A DNA stretch of 64,000 nucleotides from a virus (lineage: Duplodnaviria; Heunggongvirae; Uroviricota; Caudoviricetes): the IMG/VR virus record IMGVR_UViG_3300046003_006038, positions 1 to 64,000 of that record; one strand, 5' to 3'. A program made the position numbers and the translations under genes. Within the stretch, counting starts at the first letter, position 1. Each line of letters opens with the position of its first letter. This document shows, piece by piece, positions 24,814 to 43,976 of the stretch. The notes under the pieces are model-generated. The model saw nothing but the letters and a program-made list of their open reading frames with translations. It searched no databases and had not been told where the DNA came from.

Positions 24814-26040
24814 TTAGTTCTTACATACTATTAGATTATTCTGATATTCTTCTAAAGAGTTAATAGTTAACTTAAATATATCTAGTTCAAACTCTCCTAC
24901 CTCTCCACTCTCTTTTATTATTTCCGGCAATTGTTGAATAATATTAAAGGATTGTTGAGTGAATTGTTTTGCATCAAACTCTAATACAATATCATTTTCT
25001 AACTTAGGATCGTTATACTCTATAGTATATATTCTCTTTGATAAGTCAAATTTAGTATTTAACTGCTCCTTGTCAATATAATGTGAGGTAATAACCTGCA
25101 TAGTATCGTCTATGTATATTCTATCGCACCAAGGTTCTAATACTTCTAGTACCTGTAAATTAGAGTTTTTAATTACATAGGCTATGTTATATTTCGGCGG
25201 AACTTTTGGCATCATAAGTTCATCATGTAGTACATTACTTCCCCATTTTCTCCACCACTCTCTGAATTTAATTGCTCTTAATGCTTTGTATTCTTCAGAG
25301 TCTTTTGGCTTATACCAAATTGTCCCATCTGGTAAAGGAATCTCAGCCTCTATCTCTAATCCATCTTTAAACCTACTTCCTCTACAAGTCATATGGTATG
25401 TCAAAGAATCTCTTGATTGTATTAAATCATATCCGGCTAAGTACATTCTATTGAAGATATCCGAGTCTTCTAATTCCATTGGAGCAAATAACTTGTCATG
25501 TCCTCCTATGGCTTGAAAGTCTTCTTTATTCATACACCATGGAGCAAAGATTCCATTTGTTGTTTGATCTTTGTATACAGTTTGACTCTCTTTTACAAAT
25601 TGTAAGAAGTCTTCTTTCTTAAACTCTTCCGGCTCTGTTCCAAACAGTCTTACAAACTTCTCAGGCCCTGGAGGATGTAGAGGCGGTTCAACTCTAGTAG
25701 CTGCTACAACTGTTTTATCTTTTAAATGCTTAAGTAAGTTCTCTACATATCCTGGAGCTACAACCATATCGGCGTGAAGTATGCTGAATACTTCTGTCTT
25801 AGATATCTCAACTCCTTTGTCATATAGAATGGTATGTCCTTGTCTTTCTGGACCTTCGTTTCTGTATTTAATTATGTTATCTCCTTTTAAGGATTGAATC
25901 CAATCCCAAGTACCATCTGTTGATGCATCGTCTAATAAAACAATATCATGCTGAGTTCCGTAATGCTCTTGTATAGAACCAACTGCTTGTTTTAAGTATT
26001 TTAAATTATTCCTGGAAGGAATTATAAAACTTATTCTCAT
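24814..26040 (-). CDS. glycosyltransferase family 2 (GT-A) with C-terminal extension
   Basis: RISFIIPSRNNLKYL...LLDDASTDGT (GT2 N-terminal signature, DxD-type). Confidence 0.65.
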   Translation of the reverse strand: MRISFIIPSRNNLKYLKQAVGSIQEHYGTQHDIVLLDDASTDGTWDWIQSLKGDNIIKYRNEGPERQGHTILYDKGVEISKTEVFSILHADMVVAPGYVENLLKHLKDKTVVAATRVEPPLHPPGPEKFVRLFGTEPEEFKKEDFLQFVKESQTVYKDQTTNGIFAPWCMNKEDFQAIGGHDKLFAPMELEDSDIFNRMYLAGYDLIQSRDSLTYHMTCRGSRFKDGLEIEAEIPLPDGTIWYKPKDSEEYKALRAIKFREWWRKWGSNVLHDELMMPKVPPKYNIAYVIKNSNLQVLEVLEPWCDRIYIDDTMQVITSHYIDKEQLNTKFDLSKRIYTIEYNDPKLENDIVLEFDAKQFTQQSFNIIQQLPEIIKESGEVGEFELDIFKLTINSLEEYQNNLIVCKN

Positions 26041-26807
26041 TTTAATTTATTATATACATTTTCAATTCCTTGCTCTAATCCGATAAAAGCTATTGGAAGC
26101 TCGGTAAAGGTCCCTATATAATTCTCTCCTGGTAGAGGATCTTCTATGTTAATTGGTACTTTATTTATTGATAAATGGTTATTTATGTAATTAGCTATTT
26201 TGCTTAATGATACTGTATCTTCATATATGCAGTCTACTTCTTTTAAAAGATCTTTACCCTCCATGTAATATACTATTGTAGAGATTAGATCAGGCATGTA
26301 TATAAAGTCCATTAACCTATCTTGGTATACTACCATAGGTTCGTTGTTAAGAACCTTTCTAATACTGGATTTAATAAATCGAGTATCGTTTTCATTTTCA
26401 TCAAACACTGCAAATACTCTTAAGGTATAGAAATCATCATACTTGTGAACTAGTTTATTGATAATATTTTTGCTATGACCATATGGAGTGTCCGGCAAAT
26501 ACCTTTCTGCTCCCGAACCTATATTGATTAGCTTCTTAAAGTGATCTTTTTTTGATAGTAAGTTATAGAACATAACTAAATTCCAGAACGATATAGTCTC
26601 ATCAGGATCTCTAGTATTAGCTACTCCTTTTATAGCAGTATGTATAACAACATCGAACTGCTTATTCTCAAAAAATTTATCTACAGAAGATTTATCAGTT
26701 AAGTCTAATTCATCTTTCCCAGGAGCTATTATATGGTACCTACTCCATAAAGTATTAGTAATACTTTTAGCAATATACCCTTTTCCTCCTGTAACTAATA
26801 TTCTCAT
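26037..26807 (-). CDS. NAD-dependent epimerase/dehydratase (SDR) family protein
   Basis: MRILVTGGKGYIAKS Rossmann GxxGxxG; start trimmed to MRILVTGG. Confidence 0.55.
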   Translation of the reverse strand: MRILVTGGKGYIAKSITNTLWSRYHIIAPGKDELDLTDKSSVDKFFENKQFDVVIHTAIKGVANTRDPDETISFWNLVMFYNLLSKKDHFKKLINIGSGAERYLPDTPYGHSKNIINKLVHKYDDFYTLRVFAVFDENENDTRFIKSSIRKVLNNEPMVVYQDRLMDFIYMPDLISTIVYYMEGKDLLKEVDCIYEDTVSLSKIANYINNHLSINKVPINIEDPLPGENYIGTFTELPIAFIGLEQGIENVYNKLK

Positions 26808-26808
26808 A

Positions 26809-27345
26809 TTACTTCTCTTTACTAAAATCCCCAAATTCAACTAAGATAGTATTTATGCCATCTACTCTATTTAGAGCTTTTTTATAAGCAGGTACAATAT
26901 CTTCAGGTTCAAATAACTCTACAACTTCTATATTACGATTCATCTGCCTGAAAGCCTCCGAGAAGTTTCCTTTGTGTTGACATTGAGGGTCAACTGGTCT
27001 TTCGCTACCTACTGCTACTCGTATAATAACTTTAGGATCTAACTTACCATTAGACATTTCAATAAACTTATCCAGGTGATTAACTATTTGATCAACTCCC
27101 ATAAGTAGGAAATTCCATCTAGGATATGTTGATACAGGTATCATGCCTTCAATTGCCATTCCATTTGCTAGTCCTGTTTGAAAATATTCGGCCACTGGAA
27201 GTTCTAATTTCTTTTCAGCTGGTAGGTGAGACATGGTATCAAATAGTCCAGTTCCTTCGTACTCTACTGCTTGACCTATAAAGAACGTCTTAGGATGTTC
27301 TGCTAACAAGCTCATTGCTTTCTGTAACTCTTCAAAGTATTTCAT
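26809..27345 (-). CDS. TPP-dependent enzyme, beta (pyrimidine-binding, transketolase/E1-beta-like) subunit
   Basis: FFIGQAVEYEGTGLFDTMSHL...AEYFQTGLANGMAIEGMIPV matches the transketolase Pyr-domain pattern. Confidence 0.55.
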   Translation of the reverse strand: MKYFEELQKAMSLLAEHPKTFFIGQAVEYEGTGLFDTMSHLPAEKKLELPVAEYFQTGLANGMAIEGMIPVSTYPRWNFLLMGVDQIVNHLDKFIEMSNGKLDPKVIIRVAVGSERPVDPQCQHKGNFSEAFRQMNRNIEVVELFEPEDIVPAYKKALNRVDGINTILVEFGDFSKEK

Positions 27346-27354
27346 ATCTCTATA

Positions 27355-27981
27355 TTAAAATTGAACTCTCATTCCTGCTCCGGCGTGAGGGTATTTATTA
27401 TTAGTATACTGATAGTATATTAAATTCTTCTGTCTTAACAGCCCTCCTGTATACTCTGATTCAAGATAATACGGTCTTTCTCTCTTCCAGATATCCGGTG
27501 TAGGAGTGCACACTGATTTTTTATTATCCTCTACAACAAAAGTTATTGGTAGGTCATGATTCAAACTGTACTTATAAGCTTCGTGAAATGCTCCTGTTTC
27601 GGCTGACATATCTCCTACCCAGCACCAAACTCTATTTGATTTTCCTTGAAGTTTAATTGCTAATGCAATACCTGCTGCTATGGAAGGAATACCTCCTACA
27701 ATAGAGCTGCATACAAATTTATACTCTGGAAGATTAACCACCATAGATTTCCCTTCTAGAATATTCTTTTTCATTACTTCAGCTGGAATTCCTTTTAATA
27801 ATCCTTGGTAATGGTTTCTCCAGGTACAGCACACCCAGTCATTTTCTACATCGACATCTTTAAACAATTCTATCATTAAATCCTCATTACCCGAATAGAG
27901 GTGTATAGGTGCTTTAATTTCACCCCTATTGAATGAATCCCCAATTTCTGTTTCAAATTGGATTAATTGTTCTCTTACCAT
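27355..27981 (-). CDS. TPP-dependent enzyme, alpha (PP-domain, transketolase/E1-alpha-like) subunit
   Basis: GDMSAETGAFHEAYKYSLNHDLPITFVVEDN is a TPP-binding GDG-X(25-30)-N motif. Confidence 0.6.
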   Translation of the reverse strand: MVREQLIQFETEIGDSFNRGEIKAPIHLYSGNEDLMIELFKDVDVENDWVCCTWRNHYQGLLKGIPAEVMKKNILEGKSMVVNLPEYKFVCSSIVGGIPSIAAGIALAIKLQGKSNRVWCWVGDMSAETGAFHEAYKYSLNHDLPITFVVEDNKKSVCTPTPDIWKRERPYYLESEYTGGLLRQKNLIYYQYTNNKYPHAGAGMRVQF

Positions 27982-28931
27982 ATAAATTTTTCTCTATAAT
28001 ATTCTACAATATACTTTAATTCAGTATCAAAATTAATTTGAGGCTTCCATCCTAATGCTCTCAACTTATCATCATTTAAAGCATATCGAACATCCTGCCC
28101 TTGTCTATCGTATGAGAAGTCTACAAAGTCTTCTAACATATAATCTTGATCTTTATTGTACAATATAAGAACTTTTTTGATAGTATCCAAATTACTTTGC
28201 TCAAATCCTCCACAGATATTAAAGATTTCATTCTGCACTCCTGATTCGATTATCTTCACAACAGCATTGGCTGTATCCTGAGCATGAAGCCAAGTTCTGA
28301 TTGGAGTACCGTTATTGTGTAAAGGAATCTTTTTGCCTAGCTTTAAATGCTTCAATGTTTTTGGAATTAGTTTTTCAGTATACTGCCCAATTCCGTAGTT
28401 GTTAGTTGGACGAACAATTACATATGGAAGGTTGTAAGTCCTACCCCATGCTGTTACAAGCATATCTGCTGCAGCTTTTGTAGCTGAATATGGATTGGAA
28501 GGTTTAAGTAAATCTGTTTCAACATGCTCTCCTTCTTCAATATCGCCATATACTTCATCTGTGCTAAAGTGGAGTAGTGTAGGTTTTGTTGAATGTTCTC
28601 CTCTATGATTCTTAATTAACTCTAATAGGTTATGAACTCCATTTACATTCGAAGATACAAACTCATCTGAATTAGCAATTGAATTACCTACGTGAGTCTC
28701 AGCTGCTGTATTGATTATATAATCACAATCATATAGAAACTTCAAATCGTTAATATCACAATCAACAAAAGAGAAGTTACTGTATTCTTTAAATTCTTTT
28801 AATAGAGTTTTATTGGCTGCATATGTTCCTTTATCAACTCCTTTAACATACCATCCTCTATCAAGGCATACTCTTGTTACATAGGATCCTATAAACCCTA
28901 GACAACCTGTTACGTAAACTACTTTCGTCAT
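27975..28931 (-). CDS. NDP-sugar 4,6-dehydratase (RfbB/dTDP-glucose 4,6-dehydratase-like SDR)
   Basis: VVYVTGCLGFIGS Rossmann; YSATKAAADMLVTAWGRTYNL (YxxxK); ~318 aa. Confidence 0.65.
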   Translation of the reverse strand: MTKVVYVTGCLGFIGSYVTRVCLDRGWYVKGVDKGTYAANKTLLKEFKEYSNFSFVDCDINDLKFLYDCDYIINTAAETHVGNSIANSDEFVSSNVNGVHNLLELIKNHRGEHSTKPTLLHFSTDEVYGDIEEGEHVETDLLKPSNPYSATKAAADMLVTAWGRTYNLPYVIVRPTNNYGIGQYTEKLIPKTLKHLKLGKKIPLHNNGTPIRTWLHAQDTANAVVKIIESGVQNEIFNICGGFEQSNLDTIKKVLILYNKDQDYMLEDFVDFSYDRQGQDVRYALNDDKLRALGWKPQINFDTELKYIVEYYREKFIW

Positions 28932-28932
28932 T

Positions 28933-29604
28933 TTATTCTTTATATAAGTGTTGTGAAAAATCTACTGCATCTACATAGTCCTGATACAGATTAAATACAC
29001 TCTTGTACTTTGAATCTATACCTGTGCCGATCCAAAATTCACATTGATGGCGTTCATCAAATATTAACGGCATCTCTTTTGGATGTTGTAATTTATTAAT
29101 GTGGCTTGCTCTTGTCCACCAAAAGTTCTGTGAGAAATGACGTACTGGGTTATATATCAGTTCAGCACCTACTACATCGTATTCTTTTAAGAACTCTAAA
29201 CTCTCCCTGTACCTAGTTACATTCCAGTGTAGTTGATATTTTCTGACATCTTCAATCCATTTATATTCTGGAACTTGTGTTGAATTGCTAGATCCTTTTG
29301 TATGTAGGTACAATATATTATCTGTTGGATTATACTTACAGTGTTTAATTATTTTATCTAGTGTTGGAAATTCCCAAGCATGTACATTTGTTCCGTTGTA
29401 ATTTATTTTACCCTTAGGTACATTAAACCTAATATTTGGATCCCCTAATAGTTCTAAATTAATTTCATCGACATCTGTATATATTTTTGAATCTAATATA
29501 TGTTGAGCTATTTCATCAACTATTGCTTGACATCTTCCATGGTTATTGTATCCATTCTTGTCTATCAGTAGGTTTGCTGCATGAATAAATATAATGTTTC
29601 TCAT
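28933..29604 (-). CDS. hypothetical protein in glycan locus
   Basis: ORF in track, translationally coupled. Confidence 0.55.
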   Translation of the reverse strand: MRNIIFIHAANLLIDKNGYNNHGRCQAIVDEIAQHILDSKIYTDVDEINLELLGDPNIRFNVPKGKINYNGTNVHAWEFPTLDKIIKHCKYNPTDNILYLHTKGSSNSTQVPEYKWIEDVRKYQLHWNVTRYRESLEFLKEYDVVGAELIYNPVRHFSQNFWWTRASHINKLQHPKEMPLIFDERHQCEFWIGTGIDSKYKSVFNLYQDYVDAVDFSQHLYKE

Positions 29605-30413
29605 ATTGCAGTCCAGGTATTTGGATAGTAATTTTTATTTATAAATTGACTTTCTTTGTCAGAAGGTCCAATATAGTCTTCCGGGCAAACAACTATTTTA
29701 TTTGGATTGTTGTTTAAATAAGCACCCCACCAACTAAAGCTAGAATTTGCAATTATGTTATGATCACATAAAGACATCATACACATATCTACATAATTTG
29801 AATTACCTTCACTAAAGTGTATATTATCCCCTACTAGTACTTCTTTACACCATTCTATATCGTCTGAGAATACTAATAGTTTAAAGTATGTAAATTTTTC
29901 TAAGAATATATTTATAGCTTCATTATAGTAATCTAGTGTAAGATTTAGTGAAGAAACTTCTAAATAATCTCCTCTTCTAAAATGTACAGAAACTATAGGG
30001 TAGTTCTCACCTTCTTTTACCTCTTCTACCTTACTAATAGCTTCAGCTAATATACTCTCCTTAAATTTAAAAGCATCCTTAATAAGATTTTCATACTTAT
30101 CCCAGTAGTGGTATAGGTGGAACCATCCCTGTATATCCCAATTAGTATTTGGATCTAGATTAAAAACTTCTTTATCACATATTTTCTCTTTAAGAGTGTA
30201 TATAGAGTGAGTTCCTTCTGAAATACTTTTGATTGGATGTTTCAAATCAAACGCTTCAAATAACCTTACTCCTCTAAACAGTTCCATATATTCTTTGAAG
30301 AATACAATATCACTACCTAAGTGTTTTGAGAGTGCCAGCAAGCCAGCGTACTGGCTCATCTGCGAACCAAACTGAGGCCCTATTGAGAGGTTTGTTTTTG
30401 TTATATAGTTCAT
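29601..30413 (-). CDS. GT11-family alpha-1,2-fucosyl/colitosyltransferase
   Basis: IVSVHFRRGDY and SSFSWWGAYL motifs are diagnostic of GT11 (FutC/WbsJ/WbgN). Start trimmed to MNYITK after the internal promoter at 30424-30462. Confidence 0.7.
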   Translation of the reverse strand: MNYITKTNLSIGPQFGSQMSQYAGLLALSKHLGSDIVFFKEYMELFRGVRLFEAFDLKHPIKSISEGTHSIYTLKEKICDKEVFNLDPNTNWDIQGWFHLYHYWDKYENLIKDAFKFKESILAEAISKVEEVKEGENYPIVSVHFRRGDYLEVSSLNLTLDYYNEAINIFLEKFTYFKLLVFSDDIEWCKEVLVGDNIHFSEGNSNYVDMCMMSLCDHNIIANSSFSWWGAYLNNNPNKIVVCPEDYIGPSDKESQFINKNYYPNTWTAI

Positions 30414-30423: not shown

Positions 30424-30462
30424 TCTTTTATTAATATACGAAATACTCTTCTACTATACAAC
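30424..30462 (-). promoter_or_regulatory. internal family-type promoter within glycan locus
   Basis: aatatacgaaatactcttctactatacaact (TTG-N20-TATATTAA on the minus strand). Confidence 0.4.
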
Positions 30463-31299
30463 TTTATAGTGATCGATAAGTTTTTGCACAATTTCATCAA
30501 TACTATATTCACAGTTGTATCCAAAATTTCTTAACTTTGTTGTATCCAAGTATGAATTTTTTACCTGTACGATATTGTGAAAATGTGTAGGTTCTATATT
30601 AATAATCTGAGAGTTTGAATTAGCTTTTTTAATTGCTTTTTTAATAATGTTTAAGAATAAGTAAGGTTTTCCGCTTCCTATATTTATAATCTCGTCTACA
30701 GGTGCATTCTCTATACAGTGGTGTATTGCTTTACATACATCATCTACGTAAATATAATCTCTAAGTACATTTCCTCCGTAATATAATTCTACGTCTCTAC
30801 CTTCAACAATTTCTTTAATTAAGAACTGTAGTGCATTTTTCTTTTTAGAAATTTTTTGATCTCCTTCTCCTAGTACATTTGCTAGTCTAAATATTCTGTA
30901 CTTTACATTATACGTATTACAAAAACTTATAATTAACTGTTCTGCACATCTCTTTGTAATAGAGTAAAAGCCTGTAGGATTACAGCTTAGGTCATCTTCT
31001 TTAAAAGGAGTCTTATCATTTTGTCCGTATACAAACCAGGAGCTAATAAAATTAAAAGTTGTATCTGGATTATCTTTTATATGCTCTAGAACATTTAATA
31101 AAACTTTTAAGTTTGTATCTACATCTACGTGTAGGTCTTTGTGTATATTATAATTGTCAATCGTACTAATAAAATACAATACTTCTTTTGATTGTGGCTT
31201 ATAGTCTAATCTTTCATTTATAATAACTTCATCTGAATATAATGAACAGTACCTGCTTCCTATGAATCCTGTTCCTCCAAAAATATTTACTTTTTCCAT
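30454..31299 (-). CDS. NAD-dependent epimerase/dehydratase (SDR) family protein
   Basis: VNIFGGTGFIGS; YSITKRCAE (YxxxK). Confidence 0.6.
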   Translation of the reverse strand: MEKVNIFGGTGFIGSRYCSLYSDEVIINERLDYKPQSKEVLYFISTIDNYNIHKDLHVDVDTNLKVLLNVLEHIKDNPDTTFNFISSWFVYGQNDKTPFKEDDLSCNPTGFYSITKRCAEQLIISFCNTYNVKYRIFRLANVLGEGDQKISKKKNALQFLIKEIVEGRDVELYYGGNVLRDYIYVDDVCKAIHHCIENAPVDEIINIGSGKPYLFLNIIKKAIKKANSNSQIINIEPTHFHNIVQVKNSYLDTTKLRNFGYNCEYSIDEIVQKLIDHYKVV

Positions 31300-31371: not shown

Positions 31372-32016
31372 CTATTCATATTGTTCTAATTTTGATATTT
31401 CGGTGCGTGCTGCTTCGTATAACTTTCCATGAAAGCCAAAAGTATTTTTTAAATTATATTCACATTCAGGTATTGCATGTTCTAGTGAAAATCTAGCTGC
31501 TACTTCAACCGGTGCATACTTACATCCATTCTGTTTAAAGTAGCCGTAATACGTGTTTGTTACTAGTACGTCGTTATGTGCTTCTGTATAAGGAATACTT
31601 TCTTCTAAGTTTAAAAATTTTTTACTCTTTAGTACAAATCCTCCATTACCTACTCTGTTCCTTTTACACCATTCTAATCCATCAGGCCAAGGTGCTCCTA
31701 TATAGTCGTATTTGAGAAAATCATCATCCCAGTTATGTGGATTAATAATAAATCCATCATCATGAATAGATAACATATACTCGTTATCAATATACTTAGG
31801 AAGAGTGTTTAAATGAAACCAATTCATTGTATTATGAGATTGCTTCTCTATTTCTATATACTCTATATGATCTGGAAGATTGGAAGGCCTGTAATGTGCA
31901 AGTAATTTTATAGAACCAAACTTTATCTGTTTTGAGCTATACAAAAGAGCTTTTACAGACTCCTCTGGGTTAACACAATTTACTGATATTAGATCTATTT
32001 TTGAAAGGTCTTTCAT
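31372..32016 (-). CDS. hypothetical protein in glycan locus (possible novel glycosyltransferase)
   Basis: ORF in track. Confidence 0.5.
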   Translation of the reverse strand: MKDLSKIDLISVNCVNPEESVKALLYSSKQIKFGSIKLLAHYRPSNLPDHIEYIEIEKQSHNTMNWFHLNTLPKYIDNEYMLSIHDDGFIINPHNWDDDFLKYDYIGAPWPDGLEWCKRNRVGNGGFVLKSKKFLNLEESIPYTEAHNDVLVTNTYYGYFKQNGCKYAPVEVAARFSLEHAIPECEYNLKNTFGFHGKLYEAARTEISKLEQYE

Positions 32017-36377: not shown

Positions 36378-37688
36378 TTATTTATTGAAGAACTTATCTA
36401 CGATTGTTTCTATATATTCAATTTGCTCTAAAGTAATAACTGGAGAGCATCCTAAGAAGAAAGTATCTGTTGTTACTTTTCTTGATACTGGATATTTTTC
36501 AATTACTTCTTTAGGGTCAATTAAATGAGAGTATCCTGGCTGAAGCATAATGTTACCTGCAAAGTAAGGTCTTGTTTGAATCTTATTTGCTTCTAAGTAT
36601 TGACAGAACTCAGCTCTTGTAAAGTCCATTCCATCTTTAACTGTTAATGCAACTGCAAACCAATCTGGATCTGATTTATCAGTAGCTTTAGGAAGGATAA
36701 ACTTATCTTCATACTTTTTAAAGATGTCAACAATTGCTTTATGATTTCTTCTTCTTATTACTCCAATCTCTTCTAACTTACCTAACTGAACATTACCCAT
36801 TGCAGCTTGTAATTCAGTTGGTTTTAAATTGTAACCAATTTCTTCATAAGTATATTTATGGTCAAATATTTCATTAGGCAAACTTGGTAACCAATTGCTG
36901 AATCTTATTCCGCATGAACCGCACTCTAAAGCATTTGCCTTACCTTGACAGTAACATCCTCTACCCCAGTCTCTAAAACTTCTTAAGATTTTTTCTAGCT
37001 GTGGATCACTACATGCTACAAATCCTCCTTCACCCATCGTAATGTGATGTGCTGGATAGAATGAACATGAGGACATTTTACCGAATGATCCTAACATCTT
37101 ACCATTATAAGTTGTTCCTAAAGCATCACAGCAATCTTCTAATAAGATTAAATCGTATTTGTTTACAATTTCCATCAATCGATCCATGTTAGGTGGATTA
37201 CCTAATACGTGAGCAAATGTAACCACTTTAGCATCTGGATGATCAATACATGCTTGCTCTACTTGATCTAAATCTAAGTTTAAAGATTCTAATTCAATAT
37301 CAACAAAGATTGGTGTAAAGCCTGCTTGAATGGTAGGACTTAAAGTAGCTGGGAATCCAGCAATTGGAGTAATTACTTTCGTACCTTTTGGTAAGTTCAT
37401 TCCTCTTTTAGATGTTAAAGCTAACATCATTAGTAGATTAGCACTAGAACCGCTATTAACAATAACTCCGGTCTTGTGTCCTAGTTTTTTAGGAAACTTT
37501 CTTTCGAACATTGCTCCTTCTTTTCCTAAAACCAACCAACCTTCTAGCATAGTCTTAACTACAGCTTGATATTCTTTTTCGTCAAAATAAGGTCCGGCAT
37601 ACTGAACTAAGTCCTCTCCTGCTACCCACTTTTTTTCACTGTTCTTTTTTGTAATGTGCTCTTGTACTAAGCTTAAAATTTGATCCAT
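36378..37688 (-). CDS. NDP-4-keto-6-deoxyhexose 3-dehydratase (ColD/E1 family, DegT/DnrJ/EryC1 fold)
   Basis: SFYPAHHITMGEGG has His where aminotransferases of this fold have the PLP-Lys. CC...57 aa...CYC-X8-C-X2-C cysteine pattern as in E1-type [2Fe-2S] dehydrases. Start trimmed to MDQILSL after the promoter at 37698-37745. Confidence 0.6.
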   Translation of the reverse strand: MDQILSLVQEHITKKNSEKKWVAGEDLVQYAGPYFDEKEYQAVVKTMLEGWLVLGKEGAMFERKFPKKLGHKTGVIVNSGSSANLLMMLALTSKRGMNLPKGTKVITPIAGFPATLSPTIQAGFTPIFVDIELESLNLDLDQVEQACIDHPDAKVVTFAHVLGNPPNMDRLMEIVNKYDLILLEDCCDALGTTYNGKMLGSFGKMSSCSFYPAHHITMGEGGFVACSDPQLEKILRSFRDWGRGCYCQGKANALECGSCGIRFSNWLPSLPNEIFDHKYTYEEIGYNLKPTELQAAMGNVQLGKLEEIGVIRRRNHKAIVDIFKKYEDKFILPKATDKSDPDWFAVALTVKDGMDFTRAEFCQYLEANKIQTRPYFAGNIMLQPGYSHLIDPKEVIEKYPVSRKVTTDTFFLGCSPVITLEQIEYIETIVDKFFNK

Positions 37689-37697: not shown

Positions 37698-37745
37698 TTT
37701 ATTTGTTTTATTAATATATGAAATTATCTTATTGCTGGCAACTAT
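37698..37745 (-). promoter_or_regulatory. internal family promoter
   Basis: aatatatgaaattatcttattgctggcaact. Confidence 0.5.
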
Positions 37746-38721
37746 TTTTATAATAATTCTCCCAGTATTCAATCATTTCATCCAACATACTTTCAAAAGT
37801 ATATTCATGCTTCCATCCTGTTGTTTCAACTAACTTAGAGCAATCTCCTTTCAAGTCATGTAATTCTTCTGGACGTAAGAATTTTTCATCCTGCTTAACA
37901 TATTCCTTCCAATCTAATCCTAGCTTACTAAATACATATTCACATAACTCTTGTACCGAATGTGATACTCCTGTTGAGCAGATAAAATCATCTGGCTTGT
38001 CTTGTTGAAGTATTAACCACATTGCATAAACATAGTCCTTAGCATGACCCCAGTCTCTTGTGGCATCTAAGTTCCCTAGCTTTAATTCATTCGATAGACC
38101 TAATTTAATCTTAACTGCTTCTTTACATACTTTATTTGTAACAAAGTTTGTACCTCTGCGAGGTGATTCATGATTAAATAGGATACCGTTTGATACAAAC
38201 ATACCATAAGAGTTACGGTAATTTCTACTAATGTTATATGCAAATACCTTAGCACATCCGTAAGGTGATACTGGATTGAGTGGTGTAGTTTCTCTTTGAA
38301 ATCTATCCTCATCAATACTATTTCCAAACATTTCTGAAGATGATGCTTGGTATATTTTTGTTTTAGGGGATACAAGCCTTACTGCTTCAAGGATATTTAA
38401 TGTACCTATTCCTGTTGTATTGGCTGTATATAGGGGTTGGTCGAAGGATATTCTAACATGCGATTGTGCTGCTAAATTATATAATTCATCTGGCTGTACC
38501 TTTGCAACAACCCTTACCAGTGATGCTAGGTCTGTAAGGTCAGCGTACTCTAGCTTGATACTACTGTATACTGCATCTAATCTTGCTGTTTGATTTTCAG
38601 CTACAGAATTCCTCTTTACTGTTCCCCATACTTCATATCCCTTTTCTAGGAGTAATTCAGCTAAGTATGATCCGTCTTGTCCGTTTATTCCTGTTATAAG
38701 TGCTACTTTATTTTCTCGCAT
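37729..38721 (-). CDS. gmd: GDP-mannose 4,6-dehydratase
   Basis: KVALITGINGQDGSYLAELLLEKGYEVWG and NGILFNHESPRRG; near-collinear with E. coli Gmd. Confidence 0.85.
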   Translation of the reverse strand: MRENKVALITGINGQDGSYLAELLLEKGYEVWGTVKRNSVAENQTARLDAVYSSIKLEYADLTDLASLVRVVAKVQPDELYNLAAQSHVRISFDQPLYTANTTGIGTLNILEAVRLVSPKTKIYQASSSEMFGNSIDEDRFQRETTPLNPVSPYGCAKVFAYNISRNYRNSYGMFVSNGILFNHESPRRGTNFVTNKVCKEAVKIKLGLSNELKLGNLDATRDWGHAKDYVYAMWLILQQDKPDDFICSTGVSHSVQELCEYVFSKLGLDWKEYVKQDEKFLRPEELHDLKGDCSKLVETTGWKHEYTFESMLDEMIEYWENYYKNSCQQ

Positions 38722-39616
38722 TATCGTAATTTTCTATAAACCATTTAACTGTTTCTTTTATCCCTTGTTCAATTGAAGTGTACTTAAAGTCTGGAAGATA
38801 TCTTTTTACCTTTTCATTTGAAGAAGGTTTTCTAAATTGTCCATCTGGCTTATCTGTTTCAAAAATAATATTTCCTTTATAATTAAACTCCTCAGCTATT
38901 AGCCCTACCAAGTTTTTAATACTTATTTCCTCTGAGGTTGTAAATATGATTGGTTCTTCTTCGTCGTAATTCTCAACAGCCCATTTAGCTAATTCAGCTA
39001 CATCTTTAGAGTAGATAAATTCTCTTAAAGGCTTCCCCGTACCCCATACTTTGAAGTCTGTTTTATTTTGTATTGCTAAATACATTTTATGTAGAAGCAT
39101 CGGAACTACATGTCCATGTTCTAAAGAGAAGTTATCATTTGGTCCGTATATGTTTGTTGGAATTACAGAAGTATATTTCAATCCATACTGCTCTCTATAG
39201 GCTCTAATTTGTATATCTGCTAGACGTTTAGCATAGGCATAAGGATAGTTTGAACTGTGAGGAAATCCATTATGTACTTGGTCTTCTGTTAGAGGATAGT
39301 TTACTTTGTCTGGAAATACGCAGGTAGATAAAAATGATACTAGATTTGTAACTCCAGCCAATCTAGCTGATTCAATAACATTTGTATTGATCATTACATT
39401 ATCATATAAGTACTCTCCTTTGTACTTCATATTTCCTCCAAGACCTCCTACCTTTCCTGCACAGTGAATAACGTGAGTTGGTTTATGCCATTCAAACGCC
39501 TTTAGAGTTTCTTCTGGGTTGGTTAAATTATACTCTCTTCCTAATTTTACATCAGCATCAATAGCCGATCCTACCAATCCTTTTCCTCCTGTTACTAATA
39601 GTTTAGAGTGTGTCAT
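38708..39616 (-). CDS. GDP-L-fucose synthase-like 3,5-epimerase/4-reductase (Fcl/ColC family)
   Basis: LLVTGGKGLVGSAI; SNYPYAYAKRLADIQIRAY; IPTNIYGPNDNF; VWGTGKPLREF - collinear with E. coli Fcl. Confidence 0.8.
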   Translation of the reverse strand: MTHSKLLVTGGKGLVGSAIDADVKLGREYNLTNPEETLKAFEWHKPTHVIHCAGKVGGLGGNMKYKGEYLYDNVMINTNVIESARLAGVTNLVSFLSTCVFPDKVNYPLTEDQVHNGFPHSSNYPYAYAKRLADIQIRAYREQYGLKYTSVIPTNIYGPNDNFSLEHGHVVPMLLHKMYLAIQNKTDFKVWGTGKPLREFIYSKDVAELAKWAVENYDEEEPIIFTTSEEISIKNLVGLIAEEFNYKGNIIFETDKPDGQFRKPSSNEKVKRYLPDFKYTSIEQGIKETVKWFIENYDNARK

Positions 39617-40217
39617 AGTAATTATTTTGTTTTTCTTGTCTGTCGATTGTCTTTGGATGGTATAAGGCCCATTCCTCTTCTACCGGAAGCATACCATGTA
39701 TCTTAAATCCTTCTAATACTTCGTGTACTTTATTTTTCCATCTTATATGAGGAGCATTCTTATAGATTCTCATTTGCCAATCAGCCCAGTTGACCCATCC
39801 TTTTTCATTCACATGCCATCCCCACTTCTGAATATGTTCTTGAGTTAAACCCTCTACAGTATTTACTCTAGGGATTCTAAGCATATCGACATCATTAGTC
39901 TTCAGCATTTCAGGAAGATTTTGTATCAAATTGATATGAGGAATTTCATCAGCATCTATATTGAAGATATAATCTCCTGTACAGTATGATGTTAGTAAGT
40001 TTTTCCAATTAGCAAAATGATTTTCAAAATCATGAACTGCTACTGTAGTTTGGTGTGCTATTGAGGTTAGGTAGTCTTTTACTATCTGTGTTCCGTTCTT
40101 CTCATCAAATAGGATTACTATCTCATCTTCTGTACGTTTGTTGGAAAGGAGGAAAGAAACTAAACGTTTAATTTCCTCCAATTCATTACAAACTGTTATT
40201 GCATAACTAATTTTCAT
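39603..40217 (-). CDS. glycosyltransferase family 2 (small)
   Basis: ISYAITVCNELEEI...DADE (GT2-like, DxD). Confidence 0.55.
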   Translation of the reverse strand: MKISYAITVCNELEEIKRLVSFLLSNKRTEDEIVILFDEKNGTQIVKDYLTSIAHQTTVAVHDFENHFANWKNLLTSYCTGDYIFNIDADEIPHINLIQNLPEMLKTNDVDMLRIPRVNTVEGLTQEHIQKWGWHVNEKGWVNWADWQMRIYKNAPHIRWKNKVHEVLEGFKIHGMLPVEEEWALYHPKTIDRQEKQNNYYDTL

Positions 40218-40258
40218 ACTTAAATATATGAAATTTATTCTTTATCTGCAACTTCTAC
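40218..40258 (-). promoter_or_regulatory. family promoter heading the glycan locus
   Basis: cttaaatatatgaaatttattctttatctgcaact. Confidence 0.5.
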
Positions 40259-40693
40259 ATCAAAAAATCCTATTACTTCTAAGGCATCCATAAAATCTCT
40301 TTGACCAAATATTTGAAGGTTTCCCATATCCATCTTATGTGTTTGCCCTTTAGGGAAGTTTGCTTTTTCTTCCTCTACAATTTCGATAGCTTTTACTGCA
40401 GACCACATCCAATTATCTTTTGATGTACCGTCTAAGAATACCATTCCTTTACCTGGGATAGTGATTGTGGCTGGAAGCCATACCTTACCTGAATCATCTG
40501 TGTATAAGAGATCTTTGTATAGTTCCGGTGATGCTTCTAAGGTTTTGTTTACCAAATCTCCTCCCTCAACCATTAAGGTTGAAGTTGAATATCCGCAACC
40601 AAAGCAAAAGCTTGTTGTTACTTCTTCTGTTACTGCTTGTTCATAGCAAGCATTTCCTCCACAGTGTGGACAGTCTACCATTTTTTCTTCCAT
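40235..40693 (-). CDS. zinc-ribbon protein
   Basis: CPHCGG...C..FCFGCG cysteine pairs. Confidence 0.5.
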   Translation of the reverse strand: MEEKMVDCPHCGGNACYEQAVTEEVTTSFCFGCGYSTSTLMVEGGDLVNKTLEASPELYKDLLYTDDSGKVWLPATITIPGKGMVFLDGTSKDNWMWSAVKAIEIVEEEKANFPKGQTHKMDMGNLQIFGQRDFMDALEVIGFFDVEVADKE

Positions 40694-41235
40694 TATACTT
40701 TTTTAGTTATATACCAGGTATCATCATCTTCAGAGTACCCTTTATTAAATTCAAACTCACTACTATTTAATTTTCTAAACATGTTTTGAAAATAACTTAA
40801 TCTATCATCTTCAAGACCATCTCCATCATAAGGTTCAAATTTTATACCCTCACTATCAGTATTATTTAAAAAAGGAATGATTTCACTATTCATTACTTTT
40901 TGTAAAAATATTGCTTTAGGTAATCGATTTGGATCATTATCATCCCACTTAAACTGCTCTTCAGGAGTAGGTGCATTTAGATTTCCAAATTTCAATTCCC
41001 AAAAATTATCACTTGGATCATATACTAACCTAACTTCAAAAGGAGAACTATCATTAGTTCCTCTAAATTCTTTTGGTTTGAATATTATAATATTACCTTG
41101 GTTTAATTTTCTTACCCCCCATTGAGATATTTCAGTAAGGATGTATTGTTTTGTAGCTTCTTTCTTTTCTGTTAAGTTTGTATACTTACCTAATGACTGA
41201 TAAACTTCAGTTGCTAGTATTGTTAAAGCTCTCAT
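40693..41235 (-). CDS. hypothetical protein
   Basis: ORF in track. Confidence 0.55.
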   Translation of the reverse strand: MRALTILATEVYQSLGKYTNLTEKKEATKQYILTEISQWGVRKLNQGNIIIFKPKEFRGTNDSSPFEVRLVYDPSDNFWELKFGNLNAPTPEEQFKWDDNDPNRLPKAIFLQKVMNSEIIPFLNNTDSEGIKFEPYDGDGLEDDRLSYFQNMFRKLNSSEFEFNKGYSEDDDTWYITKKV

Positions 41236-42531
41236 TTATTGTATTTTCTTTAATTTTGGTAATTCTATTTTCTTAAGCTGTGGTAGCTTTAATTGAACTT
41301 GTTTTGGGAACTCAGGTACATACTGTGTTAGAAAAGAATCTAACGTCTCTCTCATCTTTTCGTATGAGAACTGTGTTCTACTCTTATGTCCTTGTCTCTT
41401 AGCAAGAGGTTTCCACTTTTCATAGTTGTCGTAGATGTCCTTAAATGCCTGACCTACCTGCACTGGATCTGCTGAGAACCATTGACTGTCGGTTAATATC
41501 ATATTAGGAACTGCCGCTGAAGGATGTACATTTGTAAGATTACCTCCTATGTATTTTACAAATTCTTTATCAAGAAAATCTACATGACCTGACCAAGCTG
41601 ATGCTATAATTGGTTTGTTTACTAGACTAAACTCTAATAGAGGTCTTCCAAACCCTTCTCCTTTTGTTAGAGAAACCATTGCTTTTACTTTACCGTAGTT
41701 GTATAGTTCGTTAATCTCTGTATCAGTCATGTCACCATGGAGTAGGTATACGTTAGGTAAATCACCTTTAACTGTCTTTCTTATTGCATCTATCCTGTCT
41801 AGCAGTTCTTCCCTATCCATAATAGATGTTCCTGATCCTGCTTGTACTTTCAGTAGTAGTGCCGGCCTTTTTCCTTTAGGTTTATTTTTAAATGTCTCCA
41901 GGAAAGTCTTAATGGTATACCCTATATTCTTCCTATCCTCTCCCATGATTCCAGGTAACCAATGTCCTACTGCTAAGAAGCAAAACATTTCATCTATCTC
42001 ATCAAATTTTAACTCTACAGGAAATGCAAGTGGGGAGTATTTTGTAATATCAGCTCCTTCAAACAACACCTCTACTTTTGACTTTAATACAAGTTCTCCC
42101 GTTACTTGACCTGTATTACTGTCCTGCATATTAAATTTTGAATCTTCAAATACTTTTTTTGCATGCTCAGAAGATACTAATACCAAGTCCATGTTATTAC
42201 ATCCCTGTATCCAGGTAGGATCACATACTGTAGTCTCAATTCCGGCTGTTACTCCTATATTATATTTACCTACTTTTTGAAATTCATTCGGTACTGTGAT
42301 CTGAATCCATATATCAGGCTGTTGTGTTAGTTGTGGTATGATTCTAGAGACTAAGGATTCGTTATTATGGTCTTTTAAGTATCCGAATCTAGTTCCTCCC
42401 CATCTCTGTGATAATATTTTTACATCATACTTATCTGTATCGATAATTGATTGTACAAAGTCTCTTGCTCTTGCTCCATATCCTGAGTAAGTATCAACTG
42501 GACAGCTTACTACTAATGTAGGTTTACTCAT
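41236..42531 (-). CDS. glycosyltransferase family 4 (GT-B, GT1-like)
   Basis: EGFGRPLLEFSLVNKPIIAS (E-X7-E region of GT4). Confidence 0.65.
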   Translation of the reverse strand: MSKPTLVVSCPVDTYSGYGARARDFVQSIIDTDKYDVKILSQRWGGTRFGYLKDHNNESLVSRIIPQLTQQPDIWIQITVPNEFQKVGKYNIGVTAGIETTVCDPTWIQGCNNMDLVLVSSEHAKKVFEDSKFNMQDSNTGQVTGELVLKSKVEVLFEGADITKYSPLAFPVELKFDEIDEMFCFLAVGHWLPGIMGEDRKNIGYTIKTFLETFKNKPKGKRPALLLKVQAGSGTSIMDREELLDRIDAIRKTVKGDLPNVYLLHGDMTDTEINELYNYGKVKAMVSLTKGEGFGRPLLEFSLVNKPIIASAWSGHVDFLDKEFVKYIGGNLTNVHPSAAVPNMILTDSQWFSADPVQVGQAFKDIYDNYEKWKPLAKRQGHKSRTQFSYEKMRETLDSFLTQYVPEFPKQVQLKLPQLKKIELPKLKKIQ

Positions 42532-42533
42532 AA

Positions 42534-43976
42534 CTAGTATATTAATTTATGTGTTATACGTTTTTTAGGTCTGTCTGTAATTTTATGTAATTCGAATCTT
42601 TCTCTTGGAACAAACTTCTCAAATGATTCATCCATTGCATCAATTACATTCTCACACATCTGTCTTGCTGACATTCCTGATTCATCAGATATTACCCATT
42701 CTCTTGCTTTCAATCCTTTAGCATCTCTTTCTTCTTTTGACATCTCATATGCCTTTAAAATAGCTTTTGCTACATCTTCTGGTGCACATCTATCGTCAAA
42801 AATATAAGGAGTTGGAACTGAACCTACCAGTGAAATGTTTGAAGGGAATACCGGGATGGCCCATTCACCACACTCCCTATATGTTCCTCTATGGTTAGAA
42901 GGAAAGTCTGAACTGAAGTCAATCCACTTACCATTCTCATCCGTAAATCTCATTTGATCCTGCATACCTCCAGTTACATTTGCAATGATCATTCTACCTG
43001 CCATCATAGTTTCAGTTAGAGATAGTCCCCATCCTTCGTTTGAAGTAATAAGTAATCCTACATCTGCTACATTGTAAAGTAAGTTCATTTGTGGAGTATC
43101 CAGTTTATCCTGAGAGAAGAATACATTTACATTTTCATCACATAGAGCTTCTCTTACCGCATAAAGATCTGTTCCATTTTCATCTACAGCTTGAGTATGC
43201 ATTACAAGTGCACATCTCTTTGCTCTCTCTTCTCCGATTAAATCACAGAATAATTTGTATGAAAGGATGACATCTCCTGGAGATTTTCTTCTAATGTTTC
43301 TTGAATTAAAGAGAACTACAAAGTCGATTTGTTTTTCTCCAAACATATTGTTCTTAAACTCTTGTAATAGTTCAAAATTTTCATGACCTTCTCTAATAGG
43401 AAAGAAGTGTTTATCATTTATTCCATGAGGAACGTACTTGATAATTTTACCCTTAGTAGACTCTCCTAAAACTATTTCATTAATATTTTTAGTTTGTTTT
43501 GAGATTGCCATTAATAAGTCACATGATTCGTAGTATGCTTTATTGTATAACGGTGCTGGAAGATCATCCCAAATGTTTAGGTACATTAGTGGGATTTCAT
43601 TTCTAATTTCTCTCTCTATCTCAAACAACCAAGTCCAATATCTTGGATCTGTGAATATAAAAATTGCATCAGGCTTTTCCTGCTGCATAAGTGAACGTAT
43701 AAGCATTGCATCTCCATATCCATTGCTAGGCAATACTCTTACCCAAGCATCTTCAATATCTGCAAACTTATTTACCTCCGAGGATATATCAAGTCCTTTT
43801 CCTGCATCAGGATGATTAATGGCTGCTCCTACATTAAGCCAATTGAAATGGTGGGCTGTTCCTACAACAATCTCTCTTGCCATAGTTGCGATACCGGAAT
43901 GCATCCTAATATCATCGCATAACAGAAGAATCTTCTTTCGATCTTCTCTCTTTACATAACGAAATTTTTCTTTCAT
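42534..43976 (-). CDS. glycosyltransferase family 4 (GT-B)
   Basis: EGWGLSLTETMMAGRMIIA. Confidence 0.65.
   Translation of the reverse strand: MKEKFRYVKREDRKKILLLCDDIRMHSGIATMAREIVVGTAHHFNWLNVGAAINHPDAGKGLDISSEVNKFADIEDAWVRVLPSNGYGDAMLIRSLMQQEKPDAIFIFTDPRYWTWLFEIEREIRNEIPLMYLNIWDDLPAPLYNKAYYESCDLLMAISKQTKNINEIVLGESTKGKIIKYVPHGINDKHFFPIREGHENFELLQEFKNNMFGEKQIDFVVLFNSRNIRRKSPGDVILSYKLFCDLIGEERAKRCALVMHTQAVDENGTDLYAVREALCDENVNVFFSQDKLDTPQMNLLYNVADVGLLITSNEGWGLSLTETMMAGRMIIANVTGGMQDQMRFTDENGKWIDFSSDFPSNHRGTYRECGEWAIPVFPSNISLVGSVPTPYIFDDRCAPEDVAKAILKAYEMSKEERDAKGLKAREWVISDESGMSARQMCENVIDAMDESFEKFVPRERFELHKITDRPKKRITHKLIY

Follow-up and report, generated by a model that had tools for sequence, protein, structure and literature searches.

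The window analysed here is a 64,000-nt stretch of DNA formed by positions 1 to 64,000 of the IMG/VR virus record IMGVR_UViG_3300046003_006038. At 24814-43976 it carries a glycan island of 21 co-oriented genes on the minus strand (open reading frames, ORFs, of at least 80 amino acids, aa). Opposite-strand ORFs in this interval are few, short and nested inside minus-strand genes. The island is compact: 15 of the 20 gene junctions overlap or have a gap of no more than 2 nt, the only sizeable intergenic gap is at 31300-31371, and GC content is flat across the window with no discontinuity at the island. No structural or replication genes are found inside 24814-43976. The initial annotation had likewise described co-oriented, mostly coupled genes without structural or replication functions, and only its count of about 19 genes has to be raised.

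Families were assigned with Pfam, NCBIfam and PHROGs, and weak cases were followed by profile searches against the PDB. Four island proteins remained without an assignment in the three libraries, and one belongs to DUF5672. At least 8 proteins are glycosyltransferases (GT). Most of the families named in the initial annotation were recovered: Glyco_transf_11 and both domains of a GT2/GT10-like fusion scored above the Pfam cut-offs, two GT4 proteins were supported by sub-cut-off Pfam scores combined with PHROG 2170 matches and weaker lines, and the possible GT23-like protein gave a profile match to NodZ (PDB 2hhc, E 4.5e-5). Pfam and NCBIfam also agreed with the calls for Gmd, an RfbB-like 4,6-dehydratase, two short-chain dehydrogenases/reductases (SDR) and a split thiamine pyrophosphate (TPP) enzyme. 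Two stand-alone GT2 proteins were found beside the fusion, where three had been proposed, and the protein described as a ColD/E1-type 3-dehydratase is better placed on the E1 side (see below). The features are listed in Table 1.

Table 1. Genes and promoter-like motifs of the glycan island, in order of transcription, and features of the surrounding window (PMP, pyridoxamine phosphate; NDP, nucleoside diphosphate; PDH, pyruvate dehydrogenase).
Feature	Position	Strand	Length (aa)	Family evidence and remarks
GT4a, GT-B/GT4-like glycosyltransferase	42534..43976	-	480	first island gene; Pfam Glycos_transf_1 25.6 bits, just below cut-off; PHROG 2170 E 1.3e-14
GT4b, GT4-like glycosyltransferase	41236..42531	-	431	Pfam Glycos_transf_1 weak, just below cut-off; PHROG 2170 E 5.8e-14
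Optional small gene	40693..41235	-	180	inserted within frame
u152	40235..40693	-	152	N-terminal CxxC...CxxC zinc ribbon and alpha/beta domain
Promoter-like motif AGTTGC-N14-TTTCATATATTTA	40221..40253	-		ends 3 nt upstream of GT2s start
GT2s, GT-A/GT2 glycosyltransferase	39603..40217	-	204	semi-conserved, head of variable part; Pfam Glycos_transf_2 48.7 bits, above cut-off
Fcl-like GDP-4-keto-6-deoxymannose epimerase/reductase	38708..39616	-	302	module A; NCBIfam GDP-L-fucose synthase 230 bits, equivalog cut-off 500
Gmd, GDP-mannose 4,6-dehydratase	37729..38721	-	330	module A; Pfam GDP_Man_Dehyd E 3.9e-119; TIGR01472 399.5 bits
Promoter-like motif	37711..37743	-		upstream of 3-dehydrase gene, at Gmd/Fcl insertion junction
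E1/RfbH-type PMP-dependent NDP-4-keto-6-deoxyhexose 3-dehydrase	36378..37688	-	436	from ATG 37688; module B; NCBIfam RfbH 462 bits, cut-off 423
GT4-like candidate glycosyltransferase	35405..36376	-	323	weakly GT4-like
GT2 + GT10-like fusion	33777..35432	-	551	GT10 part is a fucosyltransferase C-terminal domain; Glycos_transf_2 70.4 bits, Glyco_transf_10 42.0 bits
NodZ/GT23-like fucosyltransferase candidate	32977..33777	-	266	Pfam NodZ weak; FUT8 weak
WDDD-motif protein	32016..32990	-	324	
DUF5672 protein	31372..32016	-	214	Pfam DUF5672 59.6 bits
Short SDR nucleotide-sugar epimerase/reductase	30454..31299	-	281	Pfam Epimerase 111 bits
Promoter-like motif	30431..30463	-		upstream of GT11 gene
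GT11 alpha-1,2-fucosyltransferase-family protein	29601..30413	-	270	from ATG 30413; Glyco_transf_11 96.8 bits
Protein without assignment	28933..29604	-	223	
RfbB-like NDP-glucose 4,6-dehydratase	27975..28931	-	318	module B; TIGR01181 305 bits, cut-off 365; Pfam GDP_Man_Dehyd/Epimerase match
Mini PDH-E1 alpha-like TPP-binding subunit	27355..27981	-	208	module B; Pfam E1_dh 58 bits; TIGR03182 partial match
Mini PDH-E1 beta-like (Transket_pyr) subunit	26809..27345	-	178	module B; Transket_pyr 27.7 bits; NCBIfam PDH E1 beta partial
SDR, candidate ketoreductase	26037..26807	-	256	from ATG 26807 (start codon re-read); module B; Pfam Epimerase 74.7 bits, RmlD_sub_bind 53 bits
Tail GT2	24814..26040	-	408	last island gene; C-terminal extension of ~190 aa; Pfam Glycos_transf_2 69.6 bits, above cut-off
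Holin	46108-46533			homology to immuto
Endolysin	46545-47156			homology to immuto
GroEL	50226-51860			homology to immuto
GroES	51863-52168			homology to immuto
DNA polymerase A	53910-56285			homology to immuto
7-deazaguanine DNA-modification cluster	56768-64000	-		81-91% to immuto
QueF	56768-57694	-		
Thymidylate kinase	57697-58251	-		
DpdN-like formyltransferase	58227-58769	-		
DpdA	59777-60580	-		
FolE	62219-62926	-		

Judged by its homologies, the window derives from an Immutovirus-like Flavobacterium myovirus. Nucleotide matches in the phage collection were confined to the Flavobacterium phages vB_FspM_immuto (immuto below), at about 80% identity over 21% of the locus, at its two ends. Immuto is an Immutovirus of 160 kb from the Baltic Sea that was cultured on Flavobacterium sp. 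LMO8. The backbone of the window is syntenic with it at 80-95% aa identity (tblastn), with 84-94% for the genes flanking the island. The slot of the island lies downstream of genes for a PD-(D/E)XK nuclease and a DUF3310 protein and upstream of homologues of gp168-gp164, and the same flanks are seen in IMG/VR loci. In immuto this slot holds gp169-gp181, an island of 10.8 kb compared with 19.2 kb here. Five genes, referred to as the frame, are shared by the two islands: GT4a, GT4b, u152, GT2s and the tail GT2 are orthologous to gp181, gp180, gp179, gp178 and gp169 (85, 80, 78, 59 and 59% identity, respectively). The 14 central genes (26037-39616, 13.6 kb) have no immuto orthologue, only paralogue-level matches of 23-26%. 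In the immuto centre (about 5.8 kb) there are two DegT aminotransferases, a methyltransferase, a 'pilin glycosylation' protein and a mannosyltransferase.

The combination of a constant frame and a replaced centre recurs in related viruses. GT4a belongs to the core genes of the lineage. Relatives with 59-91% identity are encoded on at least 598 IMG/VR stretches, from contigs of up to 191 kb, and the protein has at least 8000 homologues, on which PF00534 is precomputed. When the ORFs of 80 loci were clustered, nearly all loci showed the PD-(D/E)XK nuclease, GT4a, GT4b (in 71 of the 80), an optional small gene, u152 and GT2s. After GT2s follow a variable stretch, the 408-aa GT2 and then the backbone, the same backbone genes coming next in the relatives. 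Labels with L (L006, L084, L153 etc.) denote related loci or contigs that were compared with the window. GT2s is 90% identical in L055, and the tail GT2 reaches 99% in L084 and 86-88% in L085/L086. The protein u152 is lineage-specific with 726 homologues. The 180-aa gene at the optional position gave no match in Pfam, PHROGs or NCBIfam, is missing in immuto and was seen only in L006, L058 and L086 among the related loci; unrelated small genes take its position in other phages. For GT4a and GT4b the best PDB sequence match was a chlorovirus glycosyltransferase, a weak one in both cases (E 0.009 and 0.06).

The variable part was viewed up to a length of 10 kb in 50 relatives. Its 339 genes fall into 180 families, 124 of which are singletons, and 61% of the locus pairs share no variable gene at all. 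Variability of the centre is thus the rule across the lineage, and the difference from immuto was treated as a property of the family, not as a reason for exclusion. Cassettes of relatives encode other chemistries as well, among them NeuB with a cytidylyltransferase, a nucleotide-sugar dehydrogenase and an APS (adenosine phosphosulfate)-kinase-like protein. About 40% of the cassettes in tail-anchored loci exceed roughly 13.5 kb, so that the 19-kb island is long without being exceptional.

Comparison with individual relatives shows how cassettes differ. L084, an independent metagenome contig of 32 kb, has 98.6% nucleotide identity to the window over 20046-31336 and 89.0% over 31343-35468. The break at 31336-31343 coincides with the one intergenic gap of the island and with a second DUF5672 copy in L084 (4125-4704), and 31300-31371 has the appearance of a scar left by deletion or recombination. 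Two insertions distinguish the window from L086, 37700-39598 with Gmd and Fcl, whose junction abuts a promoter-like motif, and 28944-33784 with the genes for the NodZ-like, 324-aa, DUF5672, SDR, GT11 and 223-aa proteins. Identity of cassette genes amounts to 88-96% even where GT4a of the phages is only 60-83% identical. By comparison, Gmd does not exceed 78% identity to anything in 185,579 species genomes, or 76% on clearly bacterial contigs. Since identity between phages is far above that to cellular genes, the cassette genes circulate in a phage gene pool. Recent capture from a Flavobacterium host was considered and rejected: GC content is uniform, cellular Gmd stays at or below 76-78%, and some matches in metagenome-assembled genomes (MAGs) are apparently misbinned phage DNA.

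One such match is L159 (CAXGOB010000083.1, 'Saprospiraceae MAG'), which has homologues of the 35405 gene (62%), the 24814 gene (43%) and an HNH gene (44%). This contig, and probably also L157, would be phage DNA misbinned into bacterial MAGs. Misbinned phage contigs can inflate the number of apparent 'bacterial' homologues of phage glycan genes.

The frame also extends to a phage of another host phylum. Microcystis phage Mel-JY01 (L152, PP395634.1 83441-89690) carries it with identities of 39% for the nuclease, 38-53% for GT4a, 43% for GT4b, 38% for GT2s and 25% for the terminal GT2. This frame is without u152, and the centre consists of three genes (a methyltransferase and two hypothetical proteins). 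GT4a of Mel-JY01 is annotated as two ORFs, which may result from a frameshift or a sequencing error.

The three sites that had been flagged as phage-type promoters proved to be copies of a recurrent bipartite motif, AGTTGC-N14-15-TTTCRTATATTWA. Counting TTTCRTATATTWA with one mismatch allowed gives 19 copies in the window, all on the coding strand, compared with 1.9 expected. In 18 of the 19, AGTTGC precedes at a distance of 14-15 nt and a start codon follows after 3-30 nt. Copies occur at 4792-23841, 30431-40233 and 61970 (minus strand), and a conserved leader, GGTATCAATAATTAAAACA, often follows. Based on motif positions, start codons of the 3-dehydrase and GT11 genes were corrected to ATG 37688 and ATG 30413. 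The copy at 33935-33947 was rejected as a promoter, being without an upstream AGTTGC and with no start codon downstream. In immuto, where four stretches together cover the genome, there are 32 copies, all on the coding strand, one of them before gp178 (the small GT2). The motif is common before small non-structural genes and is found four times in the structural block of immuto as well; therefore no conclusion on the timing of expression is drawn, and an earlier assignment to early or middle expression was dropped.

Within the cassette, two groups of nucleotide-sugar genes can be distinguished. Module A consists of Gmd and the Fcl-like enzyme, and its predicted product is GDP-L-fucose. Three fucosyltransferase-type families lie beside these genes, and the GT11, GT10-domain and NodZ/GT23-like proteins are the putative users of this donor. 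The closest homologues of Gmd and Fcl (93-96%; Gmd 96% in L018, the Fcl-like enzyme 95% in L026 and 90% in L019) adjoin a different DegT-family protein.

Module B comprises the RfbB-like dehydratase, the 3-dehydrase, the mini PDH-E1-like pair and the SDR that follows this pair in related cassettes, and its product is predicted to be a yersiniose-type C-branched 3,6-dideoxyhexose. The 3-dehydrase scores 345 bits against Yersinia E1 (PDB 3bcx) and 177 bits against ColD. It carries the active-site His (YPAHHITMGEGG) together with a Cys-x-Cys...Cys motif; a His in place of the catalytic Lys is common to ColD and E1. Its nearest homologues (88-95%) are co-located with RfbB-like (88-94%) and TPP genes, with no Gmd in view. 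The E1 score, the Cys motif and this linkage make fucose plus a branched dideoxyhexose likelier than colitose, which was accordingly downgraded as the main product. More distant relatives of the dehydrase (about 69%) do adjoin Gmd, and a colitose route is possible on that account.

Homologues of the E1 alpha-like protein number 1668, with a length near 209 aa; identity is 77-91% for the best 120 listed. A scan of genome contigs with it gave no relative; its context comes from metagenome contigs, which are themselves phage. The E1 beta-like gene always adjoins the alpha-like gene, and the order 4,6-dehydratase, E1 alpha, E1 beta, SDR is repeated in L086, L145, L149 and L153. A C2 branch is attached to 4-keto sugars by AviB1/AviB2 (proposed) or YerE, followed by ketoreduction (PMC4753412). 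The mini PDH-E1-like pair associated with deoxysugar genes may represent an uncharacterised route to branched-chain sugars. A related module occurs in another phage cassette (L153-L156, a 174.6-kb JGI contig and three ENA contigs, locus 5245-9944), where the order is 4,6-dehydratase, a 597-aa acetohydroxyacid synthase (AHAS)/YerE-like TPP enzyme, mini E1 alpha, mini E1 beta and SDR. That cassette also encodes a 624-aa NTP (nucleoside triphosphate)-transferase fusion, a GT61 protein and a hexapeptide acetyltransferase. The second SDR of the island (30454..31299) has an N-terminal GGTGFIG Rossmann motif and no NCBIfam equivalog match.

The remaining cassette proteins are mostly less well defined. 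The GT2/GT10-like fusion is 91% identical in L086. The protein at 35405..36376 is 23% identical to immuto gp173, annotated as a mannosyltransferase, and its profile matches the C-terminal half of BshA (E 0.005); it has no Pfam match and 38 ORF homologues among the related loci fetched. For the 324-aa protein, Pfam, PHROGs, NCBIfam and the PDB profile search gave no match, and its homologues are restricted to the related cassettes L059, L084, L093 and L144. DUF5672 occurs as a 427-aa tandem version in L084 and as two adjacent genes in L093 and L144. The 223-aa protein matched nothing in Pfam, NCBIfam or PHROGs and has a single homologue, in L084.

The proteins of the island are all predicted to be soluble. 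No transmembrane segment was found in its 21 proteins, the one hydrophobic stretch, in the E1 alpha-like protein, being probably part of the TPP-binding region. None of the 657 cassette genes of related loci (577 kb) encodes a polytopic membrane protein, and in none are there more than two hydrophobic segments. Pfam and NCBIfam gave no match to an initiating phosphoglycosyl transferase (WecA/WbaP/PglC type) in the island, and genes for Wzx, Wzy, Wzz, an ABC transporter or a ligase are found neither in the island nor among the 657 genes. The island also has no nucleotidyltransferase (ManC/RmlA type), so that its enzymes must draw on GDP-mannose and NDP-glucose of the host. The description as an essentially complete glycan toolkit is therefore not tenable: nucleotidyltransferase, initiating transferase, flippase, polymerase, exporter and ligase are all absent from the island. 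Nor does the island correspond to a temperate-phage seroconversion module of the GtrABC, Oac or Wzy-inhibitor type, the first 117 residues of the tail GT2 giving a weak match to a GtrB-like PHROG and having no membrane anchor. A hint of a Maf-like glycosyltransferase in relatives (MptE-like Pfam, E 2.4e-5, sub-threshold; no NCBIfam match) was not used.

The island is the phage's own and looks active. That it is not an O-antigen fragment carried passively from a host, as had been proposed, agrees with its position in the same backbone slot as gp169-gp181 and with its uniform GC content. Uniform GC and the presence of the same cassette on the independent contig L084 also argue that it is not an assembly artefact or a chimera with host DNA, and conserved synteny was seen in immuto and in the IMG/VR loci examined.

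The surroundings of the island are those of a phage genome, and homology to immuto confirms the DNA polymerase, GroEL and lysis genes reported previously. An integrase was seen neither among the ORFs scanned in the window nor among the annotated syntenic genes of immuto. The window ends in a cluster for 7-deazaguanine modification of DNA. In DNA of immuto_2-6A, nucleoside analysis by liquid chromatography with ultraviolet and mass spectrometric detection (LC-UV-MS) found dA, dC and dT, with dG fully replaced by fdPreQ1 (PMC10516641). Since the window carries the same deazaguanine genes, DNA of this phage is probably modified in the same way. Two homing-endonuclease-like ORFs (58762-59541 and 60558-61181, minus strand; GIY-YIG-like and HNH/NUMOD3) flank dpdA and are not present in immuto.

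Two other features of the window also have no counterpart in immuto. Between GroES and DNA polymerase A, the minus-strand ORF 52505-53869 encodes a 454-aa protein with a C-terminal ConA-like lectin/Laminin_G_3 domain (E 6e-8), which could be a glycan-binding protein. A five-gene block at 14772-17794 (minus strand) encodes several small membrane proteins and, at 15540-16376, an SPFH/Band 7 protein with an N-terminal membrane anchor. Elsewhere, 9549-9635 (minus strand, 87 nt) has an Rfam tRNA match (43.5 bits, E 6e-6) that was not reported by ARAGORN; either a tRNA whose variable arm is long or a tRNA-like element could account for it.

What the island makes, and on what, can be proposed with caution. 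We lean towards a membrane-independent, cytoplasmic glycosylation of a phage-encoded acceptor, probably a virion protein, while holding this at somewhat less than even confidence. All 21 soluble proteins would act in the cytoplasm of the infected cell, with host GDP-mannose and NDP-glucose as starting substrates. Module A would supply GDP-L-fucose to the GT11, GT10-domain and NodZ-like transferases, and module B (RfbB-like dehydratase, E1-type 3-dehydrase, TPP pair and SDR) a C-branched dideoxyhexose. The conserved transferases of the frame would build a core on an acceptor that the phage lineage has likewise conserved, most likely a virion protein or several of them, and cassette transferases would extend this core by a variable outer glycan, giving related phages different sugar coats. 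Gene content, the layout of frame and cassette, the exchange of modules and the lack of membrane steps are shown by the sequences, whereas sugar products, order of action and, most of all, the acceptor are inferred. The absence of membrane genes, the exchange of modules between divergent phages and the occurrence of the frame across host phyla together favour an acceptor that travels with the phage. Virus-encoded glycosylation of virions has precedents in mycobacteriophages and in large DNA viruses (reviewed in PMC12619734 and PMC4691112).

Several observations weigh against virion glycosylation as outlined. The neighbours of the island are non-structural genes (nuclease, lysis, chaperonin, polymerase) and not genes for capsid or tail, whereas mycobacteriophage glycosyltransferase genes are situated in or near the structural operon. 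Mycobacteriophage glycoproteins carry Ser/Thr-rich terminal extensions; no obvious extension of this kind is seen in the major capsid and tail-tube proteins of immuto, and Ser/Thr patches in its fibre-like proteins are unspecific. The structural model of GT4a, from a shallow alignment of sequences 83-91% identical, is of low confidence (predicted local distance difference test, pLDDT, 55), and a Foldseek search with it returned only generic GT-B/GT4 enzymes and was uninformative on the acceptor. A fold search with u152 gave no match and thus no lead. The chemistry has gaps as well: Pfam detected no ferredoxin-reductase-type protein in the locus that could serve as the E3 partner of E1, so that E1 would have to rely on another reductase, of host or phage origin, every equivalog score except that of RfbH is below its curated cut-off, and the predicted sugar products are assigned by homology and gene linkage alone. 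Finally, undecaprenyl-linked intermediates at the inner face of the membrane are substrates of soluble glycosyltransferases as well, and the lack of membrane proteins is therefore still compatible with use of the initiating and export machinery of the host. Glycosylation of the host cell surface is indeed what the Immutovirus authors proposed, as quoted in PMC11500664.

Under this proposal, phage enzymes would modify undecaprenyl-linked precursors of lipopolysaccharide (LPS), O-antigen, capsule or protein O-glycans, and the host would export the product. The purpose might be superinfection exclusion, less adsorption of progeny to infected cells and debris, or altered recognition by grazers. 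We hold it to be less likely, in the mechanism as in these purposes, but to be the main rival of virion glycosylation. It is the interpretation published for Immutovirus (quoted in PMC11500664) and for glycosyltransferase-rich clusters of cyanomyoviruses (PMC12801897); GT2, GT4, GT11, Gmd/Fcl, RfbH and RfbB are families typical of O-antigen loci, the N-terminus of the tail GT2 weakly matches the GtrB-like PHROG, and the island shares with many small non-structural genes both its surroundings and its promoters. However, neither the island nor the 657 cassette genes of relatives include initiating, export, polymerisation or ligase functions, whereas flippases and polymerases are structure-selective and normally occur in linkage with genes specific for the glycan. 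Given 180 families in 50 loci, the export machinery of the host would need to tolerate products of nearly every kind. Modules are exchanged even where frame identity between phages is as low as 60%, and the frame has been kept in a cyanobacterial phage although envelope glycans of cyanobacteria and flavobacteria differ.

Among targets inside the cell, DNA seems a very improbable one. Here, the transferases would place an oligosaccharide on a modified base and so evade restriction or other DNA-targeting defences, a role that had been raised as an unprecedented sugar decoration of DNA. Some phage clusters do hypermodify 5-hydroxymethylcytosine (5hmC) with mono- to trisaccharides, using enzymes similar to LPS and teichoic-acid transferases (bioRxiv 10.1101/2023.12.21.572611), and the island is flanked by DNA-metabolism genes (PD-(D/E)XK nuclease, DUF3310, DNA polymerase A). 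The published LC-UV-MS data, by contrast, report no sugar-bearing nucleoside for DNA of immuto_2-6A, which has the same frame transferases (PMC10516641). The window carries the same QueF, DpdN, DpdA and FolE, and protection of the DNA would thus already be provided; fdPreQ1 has no hydroxyl group to which a sugar could be attached. The scanned ORFs of the window and the annotations of the syntenic immuto genes include neither a cytosine methyltransferase nor a 5mYOX, and genes for synthesis of hydroxymethylated pyrimidines were likewise not seen among these window ORFs (a long ThyA-like protein of immuto lies outside the syntenic region). Moreover, at least 8 transferases and two deoxysugar pathways go far beyond known DNA glycans. 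Another soluble target, such as a non-virion phage protein, a host cytoplasmic protein or a small molecule, is improbable too, if less so; examples would be an inactivated host defence or receptor precursor, or an oligosaccharide that is secreted or released, and u152 might serve as a carrier or adaptor. All enzymes are soluble, and u152 is a lineage-specific zinc-ribbon protein without a known fold, encoded between the frame transferases. Yet Mel-JY01 has the frame without u152, an oligosaccharide of such size has no known precedent on targets of this kind, and the extreme diversity of cassettes fits a surface-exposed structure under diversifying selection better than an intracellular target.

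New in the present comparison are a conserved frame with a hypervariable cassette across hundreds of loci, the exchange of modules between divergent phages, the occurrence of this frame across host phyla, the absence of membrane steps and the description of sugars at the level of modules. If virion proteins are the acceptor, the island might be an O-antigen-like 'serotype' locus for the phage particle in an abundant aquatic lineage, with a conserved core and a variable outer glycan, a notion that we put forward with some doubt. That the outer glycan of this phage is rich in fucose and contains a C-branched octose made by way of an undescribed mini PDH-E1-type enzyme is similarly conceivable, without being the expected outcome. 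Sugar coats of this kind could adjust adsorption, for instance to the surface proteins with which polysaccharide-foraging Flavobacteria bind glycans, or could help to evade recognition by hosts or grazers. In tailed phages of Gram-negative bacteria, they would be the first virion-glycan system of a hypervariable type to be described. Exchangeable sugar serotypes on virions would matter for host range, for the co-evolution of phages with polysaccharide-degrading Bacteroidota and for the interpretation of viral 'auxiliary metabolic genes' in metagenomic data. For the large glycan clusters of lytic marine phages, the host surface, DNA and the virion have been suggested as targets; to our knowledge, these suggestions have been tested only in mycobacteriophages and giant viruses. 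The present lineage has a cultured member, immuto on Flavobacterium sp. LMO8, and the comparative picture, with its fixed frame, swappable centre, lack of membrane steps and frame shared across host phyla, gives sharp predictions.

Of the known systems that invite comparison, sugar hypermodification of phage DNA (T-even glucosyltransferases; clusters of methyltransferase, 5mYOX and GT) likewise uses soluble transferases related to those of LPS and teichoic acid, sometimes several per cluster. These systems need a hydroxymethylated pyrimidine, whereas the DNA modification here is of the 7-deazaguanine type (fdPreQ1). For the sugars, the nearest parallels are the pathways to yersiniose (YerE/YerF) and in avilamycin and paulomycin synthesis, in which, as in module B, genes for a TPP enzyme and a ketoreductase accompany those for a 4,6-dehydratase and an E1-type 3-dehydrase. 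The TPP pair of the island resembles AviB1/AviB2 and not YerE; AviB1 and AviB2 are PDH-E1 alpha- and beta-like and were proposed to attach a C2 branch derived from pyruvate (PMC4753412). The subunits here have 208 and 178 aa, compared with about 315-330 aa normally, no E3 is encoded in the island, and the carrier signals are mixed, with a dehydratase that looks dTDP-type and a 3-dehydrase that looks CDP-type.

Bacterial O-antigen and capsule clusters have in common with the island a hypervariable, modular set of sugar and transferase genes between conserved flanks, the exchange of cassettes and the families Gmd, Fcl, RfbH, RfbB, GT2, GT4 and GT11. The island differs in having no initiating transferase, flippase, polymerase, chain-length regulator, transporter, ligase or nucleotidyltransferase, and in lying in a phage backbone. 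The virion glycosylation systems of chloroviruses, Mimiviridae and mycobacteriophages likewise consist of soluble glycosyltransferases and nucleotide-sugar enzymes without membrane export, in clade-specific sets. Homology to these systems beyond the fold level was not found, and their virion glycans have been shown chemically, whereas for the island a virion glycan is a prediction.

Among phages, comparable clusters have been published for cyanomyoviruses and for Immutovirus, and the island is thus not unprecedented. The 'cell wall/LPS' clusters of P-SSM2, S-SCSM1 and S-SCSM2R (with 13 glycosyltransferases), also from lytic marine myoviruses, contain many glycosyltransferases (GT2, GT10, GT11 and others) and NDP-sugar epimerases, and their role is usually guessed to be modification of the host surface (PMC12801897). 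They belong to another phage lineage and host phylum, and a layout of conserved frame and swappable centre has not been described for them; weak GT4a matches occur in S-CBS4, and Microcystis phage Mel-JY01 has a homologue of 43% identity. The closest known system is the island of immuto, which was noted by Hoetzinger 2021 as putative glycosylation of host cell-surface components (quoted in PMC11500664). It occupies the same slot, between a PD-(D/E)XK nuclease gene with a small ORF and HNH/DksA-like genes, and has the orthologous frame and the same promoter motif before the small GT2, while in the window the centre has been replaced and an extra 180-aa gene is present.

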